A stretch of DNA of 64,000 nucleotides from Dehalococcoidia bacterium (GTDB lineage: Bacteria; Chloroflexota; Dehalococcoidia; Lucifugimonadales; VXLM01). Shown one piece after another: positions 4,469 through 57,319 of this stretch. Numbering within the stretch: position 1 is the stretch's first letter; every line of letters starts with the position of its first letter. Position numbers and translations under genes: made by a program. The DNA lies in NCBI GenBank assembly GCA_009841605.1, contig VXLM01000122.1:11198-75197 (forward strand), given 5' to 3'. A model generated the notes under the pieces. It ran no database searches. It worked only from the letters and a program-made list of their open reading frames with translations, and was not told where the DNA came from.

Positions 4469-4625
4469 AACACAGCGATCACGTCACTCTACTGTACGTA
4501 ACGAAACTACAGTATTCAGGTAACAGCGGATTGGGCGATAATTGACCGTCCTGTTACAATCACGCCGGTCCTAGATTCGATGATGCACCAAATTTTCTCG
4601 GGCTATTGAGTAGGGGAGACGCATC

Positions 4626-6101
4626 ATGCCACTAATCCCAAAAGTGATGAGCACTCAGCATCCGGACAACGCCACGCCGGCCCCAAATGCCGACAAAAGG
4701 GGAGTGCTGAAAGGCGAAGGCGAGGTCGCCGAGGCCGTCAGCGTTTTCGCCATGGGTTGCGACGAGCAGATGTGGGACTCCGAGGGCAAGGAAGCCGACA
4801 ATCAAGTAGTCCGCAAGCTGCTCACAAACTACCCGGCCTTCTTTCGGCAGGAACGGTTGCTTGGTCGCGACATCGCCCTGACGCTGCGCGTGCCGAATCC
4901 GCGTATCGAGCGCGACATGCGAAAGTCGATGGTCGAGGCACTCCAGAGCGTGCCCTCGGCCTGGGATACGGTGCAAGGCTTCTATGGCGATGCGCAATTC
5001 GCTCCCATCCAGGAGGTCATCCTTCCCATGACGACCTCAGCCGAGGAGATATCCCTGGTTGAGGCCTACTATCGAAAGATCATCGTCGGACAGGAGGACC
5101 GGGACCTGCTCGACGGCCAGTCCGTCAAGGACTGGGTGGGAGAGTTCCTCCCAAAGCGCCTTCGGGTGATTCCCCTCATCGAGGACATGGAGCATATTCT
5201 CCACAGCGACCGCATCGTGGAGGAGTACGTTCGGGACAGGGACCTTCCGTACCAGCGGGTGTTTCTCGCTCGGAGCGACCCCGCGCTCAACTATGGCATC
5301 GTAGGTGCCGAACTGATCCTGAAAGTCGGACTCCTGCGTCTGCACAACCTTGAGCAAAAGCTGGGCATCCCCCTCTATCCCATCATCGGTGCCGGGTCGG
5401 TGCCGTTCCGGGGTCACCTGACCCCCGTGAACGTCGAACGCGCCTTCACCGAGTATCCTACCGCTCAGACCTTCACCGTCCAGTCCGCGTTCAAGTACGA
5501 CTACGGTCAGGACACCGTCCGCAACGCCATCTCGCAGATCCACGACCACGAGCGCGGCGAACCCGTACCCGTTGAGCAGGGGCGGGCCGTCGAGATAATT
5601 GAAAAGACAACCGCCGAGTATCAGTCACAGGTGCAGCGTCTGGCCGACACCATCAGGAACGTCTCGTCGCATGTCCCGAAACGCCGAGAACGCAAGATGC
5701 ACGTCGGACTCTTCGGGTATGGCCGCTCCCTCGGCGGCGTCGGCGGCGTGACCCTTCCTCGCGCCATCGGCTTCTCGGCCTCCCTCTACTCCATCGGCGT
5801 GCCGCCCGAGCTTCTTGGACTCGGTGCGCTCGACGATGACGATCTCGCCTTCGTCCGTGAAGTGTATCCCAGCTTGGACGGCGATCTGCGGGCGGCCCTG
5901 CAGTTCGCCAACGAGCGACACGTCAAAGAACTGCTCGGAGATCCCTACATGGACATTCTTGGCCGGTTCACCGACGAGTTGGACCGGGTTCACGAGGGCC
6001 TGACCAGCGCCATCTGGGCCAGCCTCAACCGCGACAGCTCTACCGTCGGGATCGACCACTACATCCAGGAGGCCGCCCACCTCCGTCTCTTCCTCGGCTA
6101 G
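4626..6101 (+). CDS. ppcA: Archaeal-type phosphoenolpyruvate carboxylase
   Basis: 491 aa with IPKVMSTQHPDN, EQMWDSEGKEAD, RVFLARSDPALNYG, PFRG, TVQSAF and GLFGYGR...LPRAIGF. Confidence 0.92.
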   Translation: MPLIPKVMSTQHPDNATPAPNADKRGVLKGEGEVAEAVSVFAMGCDEQMWDSEGKEADNQVVRKLLTNYPAFFRQERLLGRDIALTLRVPNPRIERDMRKSMVEALQSVPSAWDTVQGFYGDAQFAPIQEVILPMTTSAEEISLVEAYYRKIIVGQEDRDLLDGQSVKDWVGEFLPKRLRVIPLIEDMEHILHSDRIVEEYVRDRDLPYQRVFLARSDPALNYGIVGAELILKVGLLRLHNLEQKLGIPLYPIIGAGSVPFRGHLTPVNVERAFTEYPTAQTFTVQSAFKYDYGQDTVRNAISQIHDHERGEPVPVEQGRAVEIIEKTTAEYQSQVQRLADTIRNVSSHVPKRRERKMHVGLFGYGRSLGGVGGVTLPRAIGFSASLYSIGVPPELLGLGALDDDDLAFVREVYPSLDGDLRAALQFANERHVKELLGDPYMDILGRFTDELDRVHEGLTSAIWASLNRDSSTVGIDHYIQEAAHLRLFLG

Positions 6102-6105
6102 ACCC

Positions 6106-6762
6106 TCACTCCTCGCTTCCGTCGAGGTGGCGGGCATCGTTGAACCTGATGATGCTCCACAGATCAAAGTTGGTGCGCGTCCGGCCGTCTTCGTGCCACT
6201 TCTCCACGTCAATGGAGAACTCGAAAATAGCCGTGTTGCGAATCCTGAGAGTCCACAGCCGGTCCGTGCCCAGGAGCCGGTAGATGACATGGGTCAATAT
6301 GCCGCCGTGGGAGAAGACCAGCACCCGGTCATCGTTTTCGTGCTCGGAAATAAGCCTGTCCACGATAGTCCCCGCCCGAACCAGGATTTCATCGTGGGTC
6401 TCGGCCCCTTCTATTGCGTCAAAGTTGCCATTCGCCAGGAAGTCCCTTATTTGCTCGGGGTACCGCTCCTCGATCTCCGCCCAGGTGAGCCCGGAAAATG
6501 TTCCCACGTCGTGCTCCATCAGTTCGTCCCACAACTCGATCGGGTTGTCCCAGTTGGAAGAAGCGATCTGTGCGGTTTCGAGCACCCGGCTCAGCGGACT
6601 GGAGTAGATGTGCGTGGGCGTGTAGTCCTCACGCGCCAGCCGCGACTTCAATCGGTTAGCCTGTAAGCGGCCGGCATCCGATAACGGAAAGTCTGCTCGG
6701 CCCTGCCAACGCCCCTCGGAGTTCGCCGTGCTCTCGGCATGTCGAATTAGTATCAAGTTCAT
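6106..6762 (-). CDS. Histidine phosphatase (phosphoglycerate mutase) family protein
   Basis: LIRHAESTAN, SSPLSR and VFSHGG motifs. The start is reassigned to ATG 6762. Confidence 0.88.
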   Translation of the reverse strand: MNLILIRHAESTANSEGRWQGRADFPLSDAGRLQANRLKSRLAREDYTPTHIYSSPLSRVLETAQIASSNWDNPIELWDELMEHDVGTFSGLTWAEIEERYPEQIRDFLANGNFDAIEGAETHDEILVRAGTIVDRLISEHENDDRVLVFSHGGILTHVIYRLLGTDRLWTLRIRNTAIFEFSIDVEKWHEDGRTRTNFDLWSIIRFNDARHLDGSEE

Positions 6763-8672: not shown

Positions 8673-9971
8673 TTAGGGACCGCTGCTTGTCCACTCATCC
8701 GTGTCGGCGTCGTACGCTTCGACCGTCTTTTCGGTCGCCCCGCCAGCGACCAAAATCCGACCGTCGTTGAGCAGGGTCGCAGTGTGTCCGGAGCGCTCTA
8801 CTGACATCGGGGCGATCTCCGACCACGCCCAAGTCATTGGATCCATGTACTCCGCAGAGTTGACCGGACCGCTTGCGATTGACCCCCCAATGGCAATGAC
8901 TCTACCGTCCGGAAGCAGTGTGATGGTGTGCTTCATTCTTCCATGCACCGTGTCAGGGGCCTTGCTCCATTCGTTCGTCTTCGGATCGAACACTTCGCTT
9001 CCGGGAATTATGCCCCCCTTGGCTCTTGACATGCCGAAGCCTCCCGTGAACAAGACGGTGCCGTCTGAGAGCACGATCGCCGTATTCGCGAACGTCTTAC
9101 GGGCCATCGTAGCCGTCCGCATCCACTCGTCGATGGAGGGGTCGAATACCTCGGAAGACGCTAGCCCTTCGGCCTGATTGTACCCGCCCGCGATGAGCAC
9201 CCTGCCATCTTTCAGCACCAAGGCAAGGCCGCCGCTGTGCCCCTCGCGCATGTCGCTTGCTCGAGACCACGTGTCCGTTTGCGGGTCGTAGATTTCGGTC
9301 GACAGCAGCGCCCCTACAGCGGAGATGTTCGCAAGAATGCCCATGCCGCCCAGGGTTTGGCCTACTCCTCCTACGACTGCCACCCTGCCGTCGTGAAGAG
9401 AAAGCGCAAAGTGCCCCCGGCGCACCGTTCGCATGCCCTCGTGCTCCGACCACTTCCCTGTACTGGGATCGAATATCTCAGTTGTGCCTAATAGTTCGAG
9501 CTTTTCATTCATCCCGCCCGTTACCATCACTCGACCGTCCTTCAGGAGCGTGGCGGAATGTTCCGTTCGAGCCTCTTTCATCTCATCCGCCGCGAACCAG
9601 CGGTTCGTCTCAGGTTCGAATATCTCGACTGTACCGAGAGGATTGAACCCCTCATCCATTCCTCCCACTACCAACACACGACCGTCCCGAAGCAGTGTAG
9701 CGCTATGATTAACCCGAGATTGCATCATCGAGCCGAGGGAGTCCGAGCTCTCGGCGGTTGGAATTGCTTCGATAGTCGGCGTCGCACGCACTTCGGTGCC
9801 AATTGGGCTCGGGTTGACTTTAGGATCGGAGGGCAGTGTGTGATCGTCACCGGAGCTGCAGGCTGCCAGAGTGATGAGGGTAATGATTCCGGCAAGGGTC
9901 GCTGCTGACGCACACATTGACGAGCGCGCAGTCCGTCTCAATTGGCATTCACCGTAGGGGCGTCTAGGCAA
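8673..9971 (-). CDS. Kelch-repeat lipoprotein
   Basis: Lipobox LAAC and seven repeats of R..HSATLL.DGRVLV.GG...E.FDP...W. The start is uncertain. Confidence 0.85.
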   Translation of the reverse strand: MPRRPYGECQLRRTARSSMCASAATLAGIITLITLAACSSGDDHTLPSDPKVNPSPIGTEVRATPTIEAIPTAESSDSLGSMMQSRVNHSATLLRDGRVLVVGGMDEGFNPLGTVEIFEPETNRWFAADEMKEARTEHSATLLKDGRVMVTGGMNEKLELLGTTEIFDPSTGKWSEHEGMRTVRRGHFALSLHDGRVAVVGGVGQTLGGMGILANISAVGALLSTEIYDPQTDTWSRASDMREGHSGGLALVLKDGRVLIAGGYNQAEGLASSEVFDPSIDEWMRTATMARKTFANTAIVLSDGTVLFTGGFGMSRAKGGIIPGSEVFDPKTNEWSKAPDTVHGRMKHTITLLPDGRVIAIGGSIASGPVNSAEYMDPMTWAWSEIAPMSVERSGHTATLLNDGRILVAGGATEKTVEAYDADTDEWTSSGP

Positions 9972-46493: not shown

Positions 46494-47609
46494 TTGCGCC
46501 CTACACAAAAATACCGCGCCGGTGTAATCGGTCTCGGCTGGATGGGGATGCTCGCCGATGTTGCCGTTGTCTATGAGCGGGGGGCGTACTCCGTCGACGA
46601 TGTTGAACGTCCAACACCTGAGTTGGACGTGCATCGTGAGTTTCACTATCACCAGAACGTCGGCGGGGCAAATATACCTCACACGTGGGCCGAAGTCTTC
46701 CATGACCGTCCGGACGTTGAGCTCGTGGCGGGAGCGGAGCGCGACCCTCAACGACTCAAAGCCTTTGGCGAACGATACGGCGTGGACGCGCTCTACACCG
46801 ACGCGGAAGAGATGCTGCACAACGAGTCGCTTGACATCGTCGCCGTGGCCACCAACGTCAAGGGACGCGCCGACCTGACGTGCCTTGCCGTCGAATGCGG
46901 CGCCAAGGCAATAGCAATCGAGAAGCCTATAGCGCACACGCTCCACGAGGTCGACCGCATAGTCATTGCCTGCGCCGCCGCCGGCGTGCCGCTCGTCGCA
47001 GGGGCGACGCCGGCGAACCACCCCTCATACGGGCGAGCGAAGGAACTCATCTCAGACGGCGCAACCGGCGACGTTGTCTCCATCGAGGCGGAGGCTCCCG
47101 CCTCTCAGAAGCCGCACTGGATGTACTTCGTAGACGACATGCCCTTGTGGGTCGTAGGCGTGGGCGACCGGGAGCGGCGCGATAGCGGTAGTGACGAATT
47201 TGTTGGGCAGGGACTAGCGCAGACACGAGGCGAAGCCGTCGTGCATTTCCGAAAGGGCGCAGGACTCGTTCGAGTGTCCGGTACTTCCGGCGAGATAGTG
47301 CTGGACAGCAATCCCGGCTCCCATTGGAGACTATGGCAGGACGTGGACATCGGGACCGGTGTGCGACGTGTGGAGATACCGTGGCCCGCGCCCCAGTTCG
47401 AAGGTGGTTACAACGCGGTGTGCGGGCTGTCCGACCTGATAGACTGCCTGGAAGGCAGGCTCGTCGAGCCCAAGAACTCTGGGCGAAGGGCGGCAATTGC
47501 GCTCGAAGTTGAGATCGCCCTCAAGCAATCGGCGGCCAACGGCGCCGCCAGAGTCGATCTTCCGTTGAAAGACAGGTCGCTCGGCCTCAACTACGACTGG
47601 TTCCGCTAG
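46494..47609 (+). CDS. Gfo/Idh/MocA family oxidoreductase
   Basis: IGLGWMG, LDIVAVAT, EKPIA and ALKQSA. Confidence 0.85.
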   Translation: MRPTQKYRAGVIGLGWMGMLADVAVVYERGAYSVDDVERPTPELDVHREFHYHQNVGGANIPHTWAEVFHDRPDVELVAGAERDPQRLKAFGERYGVDALYTDAEEMLHNESLDIVAVATNVKGRADLTCLAVECGAKAIAIEKPIAHTLHEVDRIVIACAAAGVPLVAGATPANHPSYGRAKELISDGATGDVVSIEAEAPASQKPHWMYFVDDMPLWVVGVGDRERRDSGSDEFVGQGLAQTRGEAVVHFRKGAGLVRVSGTSGEIVLDSNPGSHWRLWQDVDIGTGVRRVEIPWPAPQFEGGYNAVCGLSDLIDCLEGRLVEPKNSGRRAAIALEVEIALKQSAANGAARVDLPLKDRSLGLNYDWFR

Positions 47610-47720
47610 AGAAATGTCGCTCGGTTCCTACCCATAAAGTGCGACGCGACGTTTACTGCTTCTAGTGCGTAAGGTATAATCAGCATATCGCGTAAGACCT
47701 TTTCCCTTCGGACCGCACCA

Positions 47721-48350
47721 ATGCAGAAAGCGAATTCCTTCAAAGCGACAATCGTCTCCGTAGCCGTACCCTTGGCCGTACTCGTGGCCTTGATGTGGAT
47801 TGTTGGAATGGTCAACGCCCTCCTTGACTACCGGCTGAGCGAGTACGGCGTCGTCCCGCGTACAGTCGACGGGCTGATCGGCATTCCGCTGATGCCGTTC
47901 CTCCATGGCAGCTTCGATCACCTCGTCGTCAACACCCTGCCAATGGTGGTGCTGGGTGGACTTGTGGCGATTCATGGAAGCAGGAAATTCCTCACGGCGA
48001 CGGTGTTCATAACGCTCGTCGGGGGCGGAGCATTGTGGGTGGTTGGGAGAACCGCCGTCCACGTTGGCGCGAGTGGGCTGATCTTCGGATTCTTCGGCTA
48101 CCTTATCGCTAGAGCCTGGTACACTCGCAGCCTCGTCGCGGTGCTGATTGCCGTTGTGGTGGCCGTCGTATACGGCGGAATTCTTCTCGGCGTGCTGCCC
48201 TTCTTCCAGGAGGGAGTCTCTTGGGAAGGACACCTTACCGGTCTCATTGCGGGGGCGCTCGCGGCCCGACTAATGTGGAAGGAAAATCAGCCGGAAGAGG
48301 CCGAACAGGGCATGTCCGAGCAGGCCTCGGGGCCCGACGGATTTCGTTGA
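47721..48350 (+). CDS. Rhomboid family intramembrane serine protease
   Basis: PFLHGSFDHL..N, HVGASG and SWEGHL.G. Confidence 0.9.
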   Translation: MQKANSFKATIVSVAVPLAVLVALMWIVGMVNALLDYRLSEYGVVPRTVDGLIGIPLMPFLHGSFDHLVVNTLPMVVLGGLVAIHGSRKFLTATVFITLVGGGALWVVGRTAVHVGASGLIFGFFGYLIARAWYTRSLVAVLIAVVVAVVYGGILLGVLPFFQEGVSWEGHLTGLIAGALAARLMWKENQPEEAEQGMSEQASGPDGFR

Positions 48351-48376
48351 CACTCAGATTTTCCCTATGTTAGAAT
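48347..48376 (+). promoter_or_regulatory. Sigma70 promoter of the atp operon
   Basis: TTGACA-18 nt-TAGAAT with an extended -10 TG. The -35 overlaps the rhomboid stop codon. Confidence 0.7.
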
Positions 48377-48413
48377 CCAGTCGCCCTAAGGGGTACTGTT
48401 CTGAGGCTGTGCG

Positions 48414-48617
48414 ATGCGGTTGGTTGCCCGATTATTGGGTGTCGGCTGGTACGTCGCAATCTGCATCGTAGGCGGCGTGTGGGGTGGTGTCTGGCTGGAC
48501 GACAGGCTGGTTACCAGCCCGCTATTTTTGCTGATTGGCCTCATGTTGGGGATAGTGATTGCAGGAGCAGGTATCTATTTGATGCTCGCACCGCTGTTCT
48601 CGACAGACGGTGAGTAG
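48414..48617 (+). CDS. AtpZ/AtpI family (ATP synthase gene 1) membrane protein
   Basis: G.WLDDRL.TSP.F.L.G pattern, first gene of the operon. Confidence 0.8.
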   Translation: MRLVARLLGVGWYVAICIVGGVWGGVWLDDRLVTSPLFLLIGLMLGIVIAGAGIYLMLAPLFSTDGE

Positions 48618-48638
48618 ACGGAGGAGATTGACGAGAGC

Positions 48639-49980
<1,342 letters not shown>

Positions 49981-50054
49981 GCACGCCAAATAGGTGAACC
50001 GACGCTGAGGTACGGCCTTGAAAGGGCCGGCAGCCTTCGCGTCAAGGAGAGAGC

Positions 50055-50555
50055 ATGGAAGCCCTAGGACTACACCTGCCGCAGTTGATTGCGCAGATCG
50101 TCGGCTTTCTCGTCCTGCTGTTCATCCTCAGCAAGCTGCTCTACAAGCCGCTGCTCAAAGTCATAGACGAGCGCTCGGCCAAGATCAAGGAGAGCCTCGA
50201 GGCGGCTGAGAGCGCGAAAGAGCAGGCTGCTGCCAGCCAGGAGCAGATGCAAGAGGACATACGGAAGGCGCGCGAGGAGGGCCAGCAGATGATCGCGCAG
50301 GCCCGCGACGTTGCCGCCCGATTCCGTGACGAGGAGATGGCGAAGGCGAGAGACGAGATCGCCGCCGAACGGGCGAAGGCCGAGGCCGATATCCAGCGTG
50401 AACGTGACGCGGCCATCGAGGACCTGCGACGCGAGTTCGCCGGACTCGCCATCAGCGCGGCAGAGCGCGTGGTGGAGCGCTCGCTTAGCGAGTCGGACCA
50501 CCGCGACATCATCGACAGGGTGCTCGACGAGAGCGGTACCATAGGAAAAGGATAG
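50055..50555 (+). CDS. atpF: F0 subunit b
   Basis: N-terminal TM helix, YKPL...IDER and a coiled coil. Confidence 0.95.
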   Translation: MEALGLHLPQLIAQIVGFLVLLFILSKLLYKPLLKVIDERSAKIKESLEAAESAKEQAAASQEQMQEDIRKAREEGQQMIAQARDVAARFRDEEMAKARDEIAAERAKAEADIQRERDAAIEDLRREFAGLAISAAERVVERSLSESDHRDIIDRVLDESGTIGKG

Positions 50556-50672
50556 ACCTTAGCCTGACCTCCTCAAAGATGTCTTTAGGGTTGAGGAGAT
50601 TTCGGGAGGCACGTTCGTGATGGCAGAAAATCACGGACTGCCGCGGAACGAGACGGAGTAAACGAAGAGACT

Positions 50673-51215
50673 ATGCCACGATATCCGTCGGCAAGAAGGT
50701 ACGCACAGGCCGTGTTCCAGATTGCACTGGAACACGACAGCCTCGACATGTGGGTGGAAGACCTGCAGACGCTGGCCGACCTGCTTGAAGACAGCGAGGT
50801 TGCCGCGTTCCTCGACGCCCCGCAGGTGCCTGAAGCAAAGAAGCTAGAGACTATTCAACAGTTGGTTGGCGAATCGGTGAGCACACTGGCGGCAAACCTT
50901 GTCGCCCTTCTGGCAACGAAGAATATGACGTTGCTTATGCCCGGCATCTTGGAGCAGTTCACCGTTATGGTCGACCGTCATCGCGGCATCGAGTGGGCCG
51001 ACGTCACGACGGCCGTGCCGTTGGACGACGCTCAGCAGAACGAAGTGTCCCGGCTCCTGAGCGGCATCGTTGGAAGCGAGGTCAGCCTGCGCACCTATGT
51101 TGAGCCGGAGCTTATCGGCGGCATCGTCGCGCGGCTGAACGACCGTGTCATCGACGGGAGCGTGCGCAGCAAACTGAGGAACATGCACCGGCAGGTAGTG
51201 GAGCAAATCGGATAG
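50673..51215 (+). CDS. atpH: F1 subunit delta
   Basis: ARRYAQA, VTTAVPL and LIGG...VIDGS. Confidence 0.95.
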   Translation: MPRYPSARRYAQAVFQIALEHDSLDMWVEDLQTLADLLEDSEVAAFLDAPQVPEAKKLETIQQLVGESVSTLAANLVALLATKNMTLLMPGILEQFTVMVDRHRGIEWADVTTAVPLDDAQQNEVSRLLSGIVGSEVSLRTYVEPELIGGIVARLNDRVIDGSVRSKLRNMHRQVVEQIG

Positions 51216-51271
51216 AACAAAGCGCGTATTGCCAACTCATGACGAGCAATGCGCTATAGCCGGAGGATTAC

Positions 51272-52783
51272 ATGGCAGTACGAGGACAGGACATAGCGTC
51301 CGTAATCAAGCGTCAGATCGAGGAGTTCGGTCAGGAACTCACCATGGTCGACGTTGGCACCGTCGTAGAGGTGGGAGACGGCATCGCCCGTGTCCACGGC
51401 CTCTCCGGTGTCGGAGCGAACGAGCTCCTTGAGTTCGAGGGCGGTGTCATTGGAATGGCGCTGAACCTCGAAGAGGATAGCGTGGGCGCCGTCATCATGG
51501 GCGACCCGCTCGCGGTCAAGGAAGGCAGCGAGGTGCGCGGCACCGGTCGCGTCGCCGAGGTGCCCGTCGGCGAGGCTCTGCTTGGCCGGGTCGTGGACGG
51601 TATCGGCAGGCCCATCGACGGCAAGGGGCCGATCCGCACGACCGAGACGAGGCCCGTCGAGTTCCTCGCCCCGGACGTGGCCTCCCGCGAGCCGGTGAAT
51701 GTCCCAATGCAGACCGGCGTCAAGGCGATCGACGCGATGGTGCCCATCGGCCGCGGACAGCGCGAGCTCATCATCGGCGACCGCTCAACCGGCAAGACCG
51801 CCATCTGCACCGATACGATCATCAACCAGAAGGGCGGCGACCTCATCTGCATCTACGTCGCCATCGGCCAGAAGGTCGGCAAGGTCGCGCAGCTGCAGGC
51901 TATATTGGAGCAGAACGGCGCGATGGACTACTCCATCATCGTGGCCGCCAACGCCTCCGACCCCGCTCCTCTCCAGTATCTCGCTCCCTACACAGGCTGT
52001 GCCATGGGCGAATACTTCATGTACAAGGGCCAGGACGCCCTCATCATGTACGACGACCTCTCGAAGCATGCGTGGGCCTATCGCCAGATGTCCCTTCTGC
52101 TCCGACGACCTCCCGGACGCGAGGCCTATCCCGGCGACGTGTTCTTCCTGCACAGCAGGCTGCTCGAACGGGCCGCCCGCGTATCGCAAGACCTCGGCGG
52201 CGGTTCGCTCACTGCGTTGCCGATCATCGAGACGCTGGCTGGCGACGTGTCGGCATACGTTCCGACCAACGTGATCTCCATCACGGACGGCCAGATCTAC
52301 CTGGAGCCGGAGCTCTTCGCGTCAGGCATTCGTCCTGCCGTAAACGCCGGTCTCTCGGTATCCCGCGTCGGAGGAAGCGCCCAGACGCGAGGCATGAAGG
52401 GTGTGGCCGGTCGTATGCGTATCGAACTCGCACAGTACCGCGAGCTCGCTACCTTCGCGCAATTCGGGACCTCCGACCTCGACGCGGCTACCCGAAGGCA
52501 GCTCGAACGAGGCCAGCGCGCAGTCGAGGTTCTCAAGCAGGACCAGAGCGTTCCGCTGCGAATGGAGCAGCAGGTCACCATCCTCTTCGCCCTCATCAAC
52601 GGCCACCTCGACGACGTCGAGATATCCAAGGTCATCAGCTTTGAACGAGCGTTCCACGATTTCATAAGCTCCAACCACCCGGAGATCCTCGATAGCATCG
52701 CCGATGCCAAGGATGTTACGGACGAGACCGGCGAATCGCTGAATAAGGCCATCCAAGACTTCAAGGAGAGCGTGCCGTACTAG
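51272..52783 (+). CDS. atpA: F1 subunit alpha
   Basis: [29 protein letters not shown] and SITDGQ. Confidence 0.98.
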
Positions 52784-52789
52784 ATCGAA

Positions 52790-53080
52790 ATGCAAGAGCA
52801 GCGTCGAGTCCTCGTAGTCGGAAGGGACACGGACGATATGGACACCGTAACCTCGACTCTTGAGGGTAGTGGCTACTCCGTGACGGGAACGCTGCACGAC
52901 GATATAGCCATCGACCTCGCGGCGTCGTCCGAGTTCGACGCCATTCTGATGGCAGACATGACACAAAAGGAGCGGACCGAGCTGAGAGGCGAAGTCTTGA
53001 GGAAACAGCCGAAGATCAAAGTGGTGCAGGCCGAAGGCCCGGAATCGGTGCTGACACTGCTGAAGCAGGCCCTGCGGTAG
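52790..53080 (+). CDS. Hypothetical 96-aa degenerate receiver-like protein inside the atp operon
   Basis: Fills the atpA-atpG gap with 6-nt and 10-nt spacers. Alternating beta/alpha pattern VLVVG...FDAILM...KVVQ. Confidence 0.7.
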   Translation: MQEQRRVLVVGRDTDDMDTVTSTLEGSGYSVTGTLHDDIAIDLAASSEFDAILMADMTQKERTELRGEVLRKQPKIKVVQAEGPESVLTLLKQALR

Positions 53081-53090
53081 GGAAGAGAAA

Positions 53091-53966
53091 TTGCCAAGCG
53101 TAAGACAGCTTAGGCGGCGCATCCGAAGCGTCGAGAATACGGCGAAGATAACGAAGGCGATGTCGATGATCGCGGCATCGAAGATGCGCCGCGCCCAGGA
53201 GATGGCCCTTCAGAGCAGGCCGTACGCTGAGGACATGCGCAGCCTCCTCGCCGACCTTGCGGCCCAGCCCGCCCCGGACGACGAGGAGTACATCCATCCC
53301 TTGCTCCGCCGCCGCGAGATCAAGCGGGCGGAGATCGTCGTCATAACCCCCGACCGCGGACTCACGGGCGGACTTCACAGCAGGATCAACCGCGTCGTCG
53401 GCGAGTTCATCTTGGAGCGACAGAAGGAAGGCGTCGAAACGAGCGTCATAGCCGTCGGACGGAAGGGCCGCGACTTCCTGGTGAGGACGGGACAGGACGT
53501 GCGGGCCGTCTTCAGCGACCTCGGCGACCGGCCTGAGCTTGAGGACGTTCGCCCAATCGCCACTCTTGTGAACGACGAATACAGCGAGGAGCGCGTGGAC
53601 GCCGTGTATCTGGCCTACGCCGACTTCGTGAGCACGGTCACGCAGAGGCCGGTTGTGCAGCCACTGCTGCCTGTCGTGCCCGCTGAGCTCGAATACAAGG
53701 ACATGGTCGGGTACATCTACGAGCCCGACCCCCTAACCGTCATGGCCGCCCTGCTGCCGCGCTTCGTGGACATGCAGGTCTACCACGCGATCTTGGAGAG
53801 CGTGGCGAGCGAGCAGTCGGCCAGGATGGTTGCCATGCGGAACGCGACGGACAACGCCAACGACATGGTTTCCGACCTCACGTTGGAAATGAACAAGGCA
53901 CGTCAGGAGTCGATCACGTCCGAGTTGTTGGACATCGTGGGCGGCGCGGCGGCCGTCGAAGCATAG
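53091..53966 (+). CDS. atpG: F1 subunit gamma
   Basis: KITKAM, DRGL.G, SEQSARM.AM..ATDN and RQESIT. Confidence 0.97.
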   Translation: MPSVRQLRRRIRSVENTAKITKAMSMIAASKMRRAQEMALQSRPYAEDMRSLLADLAAQPAPDDEEYIHPLLRRREIKRAEIVVITPDRGLTGGLHSRINRVVGEFILERQKEGVETSVIAVGRKGRDFLVRTGQDVRAVFSDLGDRPELEDVRPIATLVNDEYSEERVDAVYLAYADFVSTVTQRPVVQPLLPVVPAELEYKDMVGYIYEPDPLTVMAALLPRFVDMQVYHAILESVASEQSARMVAMRNATDNANDMVSDLTLEMNKARQESITSELLDIVGGAAAVEA

Positions 53967-53973
53967 AGAGTAG

Positions 53974-55416
<1,443 letters not shown>

Positions 55417-55427
55417 AGACAACAAGA

Positions 55428-55859
55428 ATGCCGCTGACACTCGAAATAGTAACTGCCGAACGGGTTGTCTACTCCGAAGAGGTGGATGTGCTTGTCGCCC
55501 CCGGAGTCGTCGGAGAGCTCGGCGTCCTGCCGAGTCACGCCCCCCTGCTGACCATCATGCAGCCGGGCGAGATTCGCGTCGACAAGGGGGAAGAGCAGAC
55601 CTACATCGCCGTCAGCGGCGGGTTCCTCGAGGTCATCGGTGACAAGGCGACGATTCTTGCGGATACGGCCGAGCGAGCTGAGGAGATTGATGAGGCCCGC
55701 GCCGAGGAAGCCGTCAAGCGAGCCGAGGAGCGAATCGCATCGGCTTCTTCCGCATTCGACTTGGAGCGCGCCCTCGCATCGGTAAGACGCTCGCAGGCCC
55801 GTCTCAAAGTCGCCCGACGACGCACGCGCGCCCCGCGACCGGAGATGCCCGCAGGGTAA
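55428..55859 (+). CDS. atpC: F1 subunit epsilon
   Basis: GELGVLPSHAP, SGGFLEV and a C-terminal helical hairpin. Confidence 0.96.
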   Translation: MPLTLEIVTAERVVYSEEVDVLVAPGVVGELGVLPSHAPLLTIMQPGEIRVDKGEEQTYIAVSGGFLEVIGDKATILADTAERAEEIDEARAEEAVKRAEERIASASSAFDLERALASVRRSQARLKVARRRTRAPRPEMPAG

Positions 55860-56010
55860 GCATCCTTCCGGATCGGGACGCTCGCGCACGGGGACTCCCG
55901 ATGTTGAAGCGCATTCCAGTGATTTTATCCTAATCCGCTGAGTCGCTTCGTACAGGCGTCCATACTGTTTGGCAGTGGTTGAATCATAGTGCTTGTGCAT
56001 GCCGCAATCC

Positions 56011-56039
56011 TTGACTTACGCACGGTTCGATGCTACGAT
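56011..56039 (+). promoter_or_regulatory. Sigma70 promoter upstream of citrate synthase
   Basis: TTGACT-17 nt-TACGAT with an extended -10 TG. Confidence 0.6.
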
Positions 56040-56170
56040 TCCTTAGCCCTTTCCGAGCTGTCTGAGACGATTTCAGGCCCCTTGGGAGCGGGCATTTTCG
56101 ATGATTGTTCTAAGCGGCGTGTAGGCATCTGAAGTGATCCCCGCGCCGTGTTGTGGAGGTTCCGGCGTCA

Positions 56171-57319
56171 ATGGCCAAAGACTCCAAAGTGGAGCTCAAG
56201 AAGGGTTTCCGGGACGTTTACTTCGACCGCACGACGACGAGCCTGATCGTCGGAAAACCCGGAAAGCTGCTCTACCGTGGCTACACCATTGACGACCTCG
56301 CCGAACACTCCACCTTCGAAGAGACCAGCTATCTGCTCCTGTACGGGGCGCTTCCCACCTCCTCTCAGCTCGACTGCTTCACCTCTGATCTCAAGGTTTC
56401 TCGTGCCCTCCCCGATGAAGTCCTTCAAGTCATCGACTTAATCAAGGACGCCCATCCGATGGATGTCCTGCGGACTGCAGTATCCATCATGGGGCTGTCC
56501 GACGCCGATGTCATGGACGTTACTCCTGAGGGAGCCTTGACAAAGGGTGTGCGCATGACGGCTGCTCTCCCTACCATAGTTGCGGCCCACCATCGCCTGC
56601 GCACCGGCAATGAACCGATCGCGCCGAACGGCGAACTTGACCACGCCGCCAACTTCCTGTACATGCTCAAGGGAGAGACGCCCGATCCGCTGGATGCTCG
56701 CTTGATCGACAAGGACTTCGTCCTGCACGCGGAGCACGGGGCCAACGCTTCGACCTTCGTAGCGAGGGTGGCTGCCTCCACACGCGCCGACTTCTATGCT
56801 GCTCTAACCGCCGCGATTGCCACGCTGAAGGGGCCCCGACACGGAGGGGCTGCCGAAGGCGCAATGAGAATGGCGGAGGAGATAGGGAGCGTCGAGAACG
56901 CAGAGGCGTACGTAAATGCCAAGCTCGAGGCCCGTGAGCGAATAATGGGCTTCGGTCACGCGGTATACAAGGATGTGGACCCGCGCGCGAAGCACTTGCG
57001 CGCAGGCGCGAAGGCCCTCGGTGAGCGAGAAGGTCAGACCAAGTGGTACAGCATCATCGATGCGGTGACCAAGACCAAGGCGATGCAGCGCAGGTCGCGC
57101 GCCGGGTTGAATCCGAACGTCGACCTGTGGGCGGGAGCGGTCTATTCTCTTCTCGGAATTCCCGAAGACCTCTTTGTGCCCCTGTTCGCGATTGGTCGAA
57201 TGCCGGGTTGGGCAGCTCACATCGTTGAACAGTTAACCGCAAGAGACATCCTCCGTCCACGGCTCCTGTACAACGGGCCGGAGGATGCAGAGTACGTTCC
57301 TATCGAGGATCGTACGTAG
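56171..57319 (+). CDS. Citrate synthase / 2-methylcitrate synthase family
   Basis: LLYRGY, HPMD, HAEHGANAST, GPRHGGA, MGFGH and PNVD. Confidence 0.92.
   Translation: MAKDSKVELKKGFRDVYFDRTTTSLIVGKPGKLLYRGYTIDDLAEHSTFEETSYLLLYGALPTSSQLDCFTSDLKVSRALPDEVLQVIDLIKDAHPMDVLRTAVSIMGLSDADVMDVTPEGALTKGVRMTAALPTIVAAHHRLRTGNEPIAPNGELDHAANFLYMLKGETPDPLDARLIDKDFVLHAEHGANASTFVARVAASTRADFYAALTAAIATLKGPRHGGAAEGAMRMAEEIGSVENAEAYVNAKLEARERIMGFGHAVYKDVDPRAKHLRAGAKALGEREGQTKWYSIIDAVTKTKAMQRRSRAGLNPNVDLWAGAVYSLLGIPEDLFVPLFAIGRMPGWAAHIVEQLTARDILRPRLLYNGPEDAEYVPIEDRT

Follow-up and report, generated by a model that had tools for sequence, protein, structure and literature searches.

CheY-like receiver domains (PF00072), represented among solved structures by TrrA (3a0u), AdeR (5x5j) and PorX (8tff), have a complete (β-α)5 fold that carries an acidic pair at the end of β1 (the Mg2+ site), a phospho-acceptor Asp at the end of β3 and a conserved Lys after β5. 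Pseudo-receivers, such as the PsR domain of CikA (PDB 5jyu), have the receiver fold without the phospho-transfer residues and are thought to act by protein binding; the N-terminal domain of KaiA and the plant PRRs are further pseudo-receiver domains. Those of the CikA type are domains of larger proteins and have all five β-α units.

Two other kinds of known system bear on the locus described here. F-type ATP synthases are regulated by the C-terminal domain of ε, by ζ in the α-proteobacteria, by AtpTheta in the cyanobacteria, by mitochondrial IF1 and by the C-terminal extension of the mycobacterial α subunit. Defence and accessory-gene hotspots are fixed sites at core genes where the cargo differs from one genome to the next.

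The gene in question, orf96, lies in a stretch of 64,000 nucleotides (the window) from the genome of a Dehalococcoidia bacterium. As the initial annotation held, just 6 nt separate it from atpA on its upstream side and 10 nt from atpG on its downstream side, inside a complete F-type atp operon:

48639..55859, + strand, complete F-type atp operon, in the order a, c, b, δ, α, orf96, γ, β, ε
48639-49703, + strand, atp subunit a
49684-49980, + strand, atp subunit c
50055-50555, + strand, atp subunit b
50673-51215, + strand, atp subunit δ
51272..52783, + strand, atpA (F1 α, 503 aa), upstream neighbour of orf96, 87-100% identical in the loci of the genus
52784..52789, + strand, atpA/orf96 spacer, 6 nt (ATCGAA), between the atpA stop and the orf96 ATG
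52790..53080, + strand, orf96, ATG start, 96 aa, TAG stop (stop codon included), predicted truncated (β-α)4 pseudo-receiver
53081..53090, + strand, orf96/atpG spacer, 10 nt, purine-rich (GGAAGAGAAA), precedes the atpG TTG start
53091..53966, + strand, atpG (F1 γ, 291 aa), TTG start, downstream neighbour of orf96
54019-55416, + strand, atp subunit β
55428-55859, + strand, atp subunit ε (143 aa)

In a consensus scan of 47500..56500, the + strand from 49608 to 56011 has no promoter-like or terminator-like site, which agrees with the earlier statement that none was visible around the ORF; the minus strand has two weak terminator-like hairpins, both inside the 5′ end of atpG (53113-53094 and 53173-53157). 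The best σ70-like promoter match of the region (48347-48376, TTGACA-18-TAGAAT with TG, 11/12) lies just upstream of a 67-aa ORF and atpB and is a plausible candidate for the operon promoter. The 67-aa ORF itself (48414-48617) is hydrophobic, sits directly upstream of atpB, is kept in all loci of the genus and in two further genomes (G008 and G090; 49-93% identity), and probably encodes a small membrane protein of the AtpI/AtpZ type belonging to the atp operon. It is preceded by the gene of a 209-aa membrane protein (47721-48350), also syntenic, for which the label ‘rhomboid?’ was given by eye only. At the far end of the operon, the ε subunit has a basic C-terminal tail (…RRRTRAPRPEMPAG); its last residues vary between members of the genus, where the consensus has x positions.

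Contigs assembled from sponge metatranscriptomes (RNA libraries of three studies) cover orf96 and bridge both of its junctions. Two run from atpA into orf96 without a difference (X15 record 3, 52546-52834; X16 record 10, 52600-52834) and two from orf96 into atpG (X16 record 12, 53031-53186; X20 record 29, 53030-53214), and one comes from a relative (X17 record 20, 52630-53077). The support that they give is modest, because one continuous transcript cannot be proven from assembled contigs and libraries made from RNA may also contain DNA. It is nevertheless probable that orf96 is co-transcribed with the atp genes, which the initial annotation had regarded as almost certain.

The protein is recognised as a receiver relative by its family rather than by its own sequence. 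A Pfam search with the orf96 protein gives no PF00072 match at E≤10; the single match, CRS1_YhbY at E 0.067, falls below the cut-off and was taken as chance. NCBIfam returns weak response-regulator matches (best CpdR, E 0.0039), and phmmer of the single protein against PDB sequences is weak too (AdeR, E 0.065). A profile built from 37 family members, by comparison, finds receiver domains of known structure at E 4.6e-8 to 1e-5, and 19 of the 37 members match PF00072 themselves (best E 1.2e-5). Homology of orf96 to the PF00072 receivers is therefore likely on these profile matches, with the window protein outside the curated model.

The AlphaFold2 model computed with the family alignment (pLDDT 90.5, pTM 0.81) has exactly four β-α units over all 96 residues (E6-10 H14-26 E30-34 H37-46 E51-55 H59-72 E77-81 H84-95). 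It thus follows the receiver order from β1-α1 to β4-α4 and ends after α4, without β5 and α5, so that the complete (β-α)5 fold is missing. Foldseek against the PDB ranks receiver domains at the top (PmrA, PorX, AdeR and 3crn, TMq 0.7-0.83), at a TMq of 0.8 for PorX, AdeR and 3crn, and places the CikA pseudo-receiver 5jyu at rank 22 (E 7.8e-4, TMq 0.71). The proposal of a truncated CheY-like receiver is borne out by the fold search suggested along with it. Clusters in the ESM Atlas, made up of hypothetical or ‘response regulatory domain’ proteins of about 100 aa from Chloroflexota, Myxococcota and Actinomycetota, point the same way, as leads only.

The active site is degenerate, much as had been suspected when the acidic pocket and the phospho-Asp were described as displaced and the canonical KP as missing. 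Opposite the DD of TrrA, where the acidic pair would bind Mg2+, orf96 has G11-R12, and the family consensus is GR. In the profile alignment with TrrA, the column of the phospho-acceptor Asp is the first Gly of a GGG that is typical of the family, and D56 of the window protein lies just after β3, one to two positions off that column. The motif after β3 is ADM, VDM, DGM, GGGM, GSGV or GGGV in nine atp-linked orthologues, so no Asp is conserved there, and since there is no β5 there is no position for the conserved Lys. The position that we take to be that of the receiver Thr/Ser, at the end of β4, appears to be Q80/A81 when judged by eye against CheY. In all, orf96 lacks four of the five receiver features compared, the other being the profile match, which PF00072 gives for 19 of 37 family members and not for the window protein itself. 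Since its phospho-acceptor pocket is unusable, the protein cannot serve as a phospho-switch in two-component signalling. A receiver-like fold combined with lost catalytic residues is what defines a pseudo-receiver, and on the predicted structure orf96 is a free-standing truncated one. Its likeness to CikA-type domains is known by fold match, and it differs from them in standing alone at 96 aa and in being cut after α4; we would describe it as a novel, truncated version of the receiver/pseudo-receiver kind.

That orf96 is a real gene is clear from its conservation. A word-indexed protein search returns 33 clusters at 48-94% identity, nearly all of 95-105 aa, and an exhaustive HMMER search of 1.84 billion representatives finds 41 proteins at E≤1e-3, of which 13 are at E≤1e-10. 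Across 66 pairs of 12 sequences from the genus, the median dN/dS is 0.087 for orf96, 0.031 for atpA and 0.048 for atpG. The set consists of gap-free orthologues (the window and 11 loci, dS about 0.6-0.7), leaves out L027, L037 and L040 for near-identity or length, and takes the first 846 nt of atpG. The gene is under strong purifying selection and its constraint is close to that of the F1 subunits; the dN/dS comparison proposed with the original finding thus identifies a selected gene. With a GC content of 0.588 and a GC3 of 0.742, slightly lower than those of atpA and atpG, orf96 resembles the window (0.595) in composition, which makes it an old resident rather than a recent import; recent horizontal acquisition is rejected on this composition. 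In the window atpA and orf96 share a reading frame; in-frame readthrough of the atpA TAG into orf96 is rejected, as the spacing differs in L034 (7 nt), L040 and L088. The genome that the window comes from has a single copy of the family.

Within the genus the position of the gene does not vary. Among 61 related genomes, orf96 is found in 16/16 of the genus (that of the window, G000, and 15 others), in every one of them between atpA and atpG, and the same gene order recurs in 3/3 metagenome contigs with genus-like atp genes (L088-L090). It is the sole gene of the gap in 13/16 genomes; two have a further 2.5 kb between the orf96 orthologue and atpG (G002 and G004), and one has extra genes on both sides (G013). 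In L088 the spacers around orf96 are about 180 and 65 nt long. The 6-nt spacer has a variant in the genus, GCCGAG, which is similar to the first letters of the ‘empty’ spacer that relatives have between atpA and atpG (e.g. GCCGACGGT in L069). The carriers are Dehalococcoidia MAGs, one of them named ‘SAR202 cluster bacterium’, and the DNA occurs mostly in sponge metagenomes: the host genus is a sponge-associated, SAR202-like member of the Dehalococcoidia.

Outside the genus the gap is another matter. The initial annotation had leaned on a highly conserved adjacency of atpA and atpG, and in this order the adjacency is not a tight one. A survey of 28 out-of-genus loci, among the best 30 of 78 genomes with an atpG match (81 searched), finds a gap of at least 92 nt in 16 (92 nt to about 4 kb). 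The gap measures 11-52 nt in 12/28 loci, 92-341 nt in 9/28, where the sequence is largely repeat-like and without convincing ORFs, and 421-1102 nt in 6/28; in the one remaining locus (G090), atpA lies 3.98 kb upstream of atpG. No member of the orf96 family was found in any of the 28 gaps, so that the survey of the interval places the family there within the genus only. The genes found in the gaps of relatives, and beside orf96 in three genomes of the genus, are as follows:

G037: HicB-like and HicA
G026 and G082: PaREP1-like protein, with or without a membrane protein
G036 and G049: proteins without a family match
G090: HEAT-N6_N4 methyltransferase, CfrBI-like type II endonuclease and two HicB-like genes
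G002 and G004 (in the genus): 119-aa acidic protein, GmrSD (PADLOC Orf5/HEC-06, E 1.5e-151) and DUF6197
G013 (in the genus): HSDR_N-like gene and HEAT-methyltransferase, on either side of the orf96 orthologue

This cargo is co-directional with the atp operon and unrelated to energy conversion, and among the inserts examined none showed an integrase or transposase. PADLOC matches cargo proteins of the relatives; for orf96 and for an out-of-genus homologue it returns no family. In this order the atpA-atpG gap is a permissive slot, into which unrelated co-directional cargo has entered again and again. Two inserts have direct repeats at their boundaries: in G013 about 33 nt of the 3′ end of atpA are duplicated before the orf96 orthologue (L037, about 4611-4645 and about 5960-5995), and in G002 the 2.5-kb GmrSD cassette is bordered on either side by the 8-nt GTAGGGAA (L031, about 6285-6300 and just upstream of atpG at 8800). 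Such repeats suggest site-directed or homology-driven insertion. The gaps of 90-340 nt in L057, L061, L070 and L073 are alike in containing GC-rich sequence of repeat-like character (e.g. ...CCCTTCGCYACGCTCAGGGTGAC...) as well as palindromes, which suggests that they hold small dispersed repeats and not genes.

The slot resembles the defence and accessory-gene hotspots in being a fixed core-gene site with differing co-directional cargo (RM, GmrSD, HicAB), and also in the 33-nt duplication of the atpA end that flanks one insert. It differs from them in lying inside an essential operon and in the absence of any integrase or transposase seen, and orf96 differs from the usual cargo in being a fixed resident and not a variable one. 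A defence-rich, promiscuous slot between atpA and atpG is arguably a more surprising result than orf96 as a regulator.

Homologues of orf96 outside the genus occur at 13 distinct loci (33-59% identity: L041-L047, G016, G055, G058, G320, L091 and L092, with L044 the same place as G026), and none of them has atp genes in its flanks. These flanks extend 6-8 kb on each side for most loci, L091 being a 2-kb contig and L092 having upstream sequence only. Where the homologue and atpG are on one chromosome, they are 380 kb (G026) and 814 kb (G055) apart. A profile search of 401 genomes of the class places only G000, G008 and G320 below E 1e-20; the class-wide tally at E≤1e-6 (228/401) is swamped by ordinary response regulators and is no count of the family. 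The first annotation had made its proposal depend on the ORF being present at this position in relatives and on homologues being found near atp genes. The former stands for the genus, with orf96 in the gap of 16/16 genomes; it fails in the 28 other gaps, and 13/13 outside homologues are without atp genes in their flanks.

On balance, orf96 is probably, if by no means certainly, a phosphorylation-independent adaptor that travels as a passenger in a permissive cargo slot, its partner being left unnamed. It would work by binding a partner protein without phosphorylation, as its fold suggests, and the binding face would probably be the one that β5 and α5 normally cover. In one genus of sponge-associated Dehalococcoidia it has become fixed in the atpA-atpG gap, a position that would give it transcription with the atp operon and need not name ATP synthase as its partner. 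Because the same gap holds unrelated defence and toxin-antitoxin cargo in relatives, operon membership there predicts function poorly. Three facts count against a passenger: orf96 is fixed in the gap of the genus where other cargo is sporadic, it stays there beside inserted cassettes (G002, G004 and G013), and its selective constraint approaches that of the F1 subunits. Being fixed there cannot tell the readings apart, however, since an essential operon protects any useful gene lodged within it from being rearranged.

If a partner is to be named, conserved gene order elsewhere hints at only one. In 7/7 loci found on genome contigs outside the genus (L041-L047), the homologue lies 60-160 nt upstream of a co-directional gene for a cytoplasmic Fe-S protein of 433 aa with a double 4Fe-4S motif. 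This protein matches the reductive dehalogenase (RDH) model TIGR02486 at E 1.6e-26, with 93.9 bits and thus below the 160-bit cut-off, and also matches QueG (E 5.2e-12). An NHL-repeat gene (ScyF-like, 5.3e-23) follows the Fe-S gene, sometimes with a DnaJ-domain gene between; the trio of pseudo-receiver homologue, RDH-like protein and NHL-repeat protein stands at about 6350-8800 in L041-L047. These neighbours were confirmed by tblastn and Pfam. The gene order suggests the RDH-like Fe-S protein as a partner, and orf96 might then be a dedicated partner or regulator of it that moved into the atp operon and still acts on paralogues encoded elsewhere. The genome of the window does keep two RDH-like paralogues (50% identity), which are unlinked to orf96 (G000 C101:40237-41400 and C48:44099-45247) and have no family member upstream. 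Yet these seven loci are closely related and amount to about two lineages, their Fe-S proteins being 93-100% identical in six of them and 80% identical in the remaining one, L041. Four other out-of-genus loci (G016, G055, G058 and G320) have different neighbours: TPR and trypsin-like proteins, a luciferase-like monooxygenase with a binding protein, URO-D, and PNPOx with DnaE. With the RDH match short of its curated cut-off as well, a dedicated RDH partner is rather doubtful.

The interpretation put forward at the outset was that a pseudo-receiver here binds F1 or couples the enzyme to a signal. In its fullest form, orf96 would be a genus-specific accessory or regulatory subunit of F1Fo, made together with α and γ, that binds F1 or the central or peripheral stalk and tunes activity or assembly; the pseudo-receiver would have been recruited from an RDH-associated context and would now be produced in step with α and γ in a sponge symbiont. 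As a small protein encoded beside F1 genes, orf96 would be of the same kind as the known regulators if it bound F1. The tight packing against both neighbours, the occupation of the gap in every genome of the genus and in all three metagenome contigs, a dN/dS close to that of atpG, the RNA-library contigs that bridge both junctions and a fully ameliorated composition all speak for such a subunit, and genus-wide fixation, retention beside cassettes and constraint are also what a true accessory subunit would be expected to show. The step from operon position to ATP synthase function finds no support in the comparison, however. Linkage to the atp genes does not recur across independent lineages: it is confined to one genus, where ε by contrast is not, and none of the 13 outside loci is near atp genes. 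Clearly unrelated cargo in the gap of relatives lowers the predictive value of that linkage, retention is uninformative for the reason already given, and spacing is not fixed, as L088 and the whole genes inserted on either side in G013 attest. The orf96 protein has no sequence likeness to any ATP synthase family in Pfam or NCBIfam, and none of ε, ζ, AtpTheta, IF1 or the mycobacterial α extension is matched in the Pfam, NCBIfam, PDB-sequence or fold searches, which upholds the claim that known regulators are unrelated to this fold. A complex prediction of γ, ε and orf96 scored 0.01 against a mark of 0.32, and, run without controls, says nothing either way. A role in ATP synthase is distinctly unlikely. 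Among the partners that can be named, only the RDH-like protein has comparative support, and ATP synthase has that of position.

That orf96 is instead a component of the mobile, defence or toxin-antitoxin cargo of the gap, for example a regulator or an antitoxin-like gene, is barely tenable: it shares the slot with TA, RM and GmrSD genes, and in G013 stands between an HSDR_N-like gene and a methyltransferase gene, but it is alone in the gap in most genomes of the genus, has no PADLOC match, bears no sign of recent transfer in its composition, and is fixed and strongly constrained.

The phosphorylation-independent adaptor carried in the slot therefore remains the preferred reading. The full-text literature searched, with subscription journals outside its scope, describes no gene that separates atpA from atpG, no atp operon that encodes a receiver domain and no ATP synthase regulator of SAR202 or sponge-associated bacteria. 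If orf96 did bind F1, it would be a new class of ATP synthase regulator, of a fold not known from these enzymes, a reading that comparison between genomes fails to favour. The locus does bring to light a small family of four-unit pseudo-receivers that stand alone and are uncharacterised, the window protein among them covered by no curated family model, and it gives a caution for annotation through guilt by association: the atpA-atpG junction in this order is a slot that collects unrelated genes, not a fixed adjacency. An essential operon here carries defence and toxin-antitoxin genes in its own orientation, an arrangement of which the literature searched yielded no description and which may deserve a study of its own.
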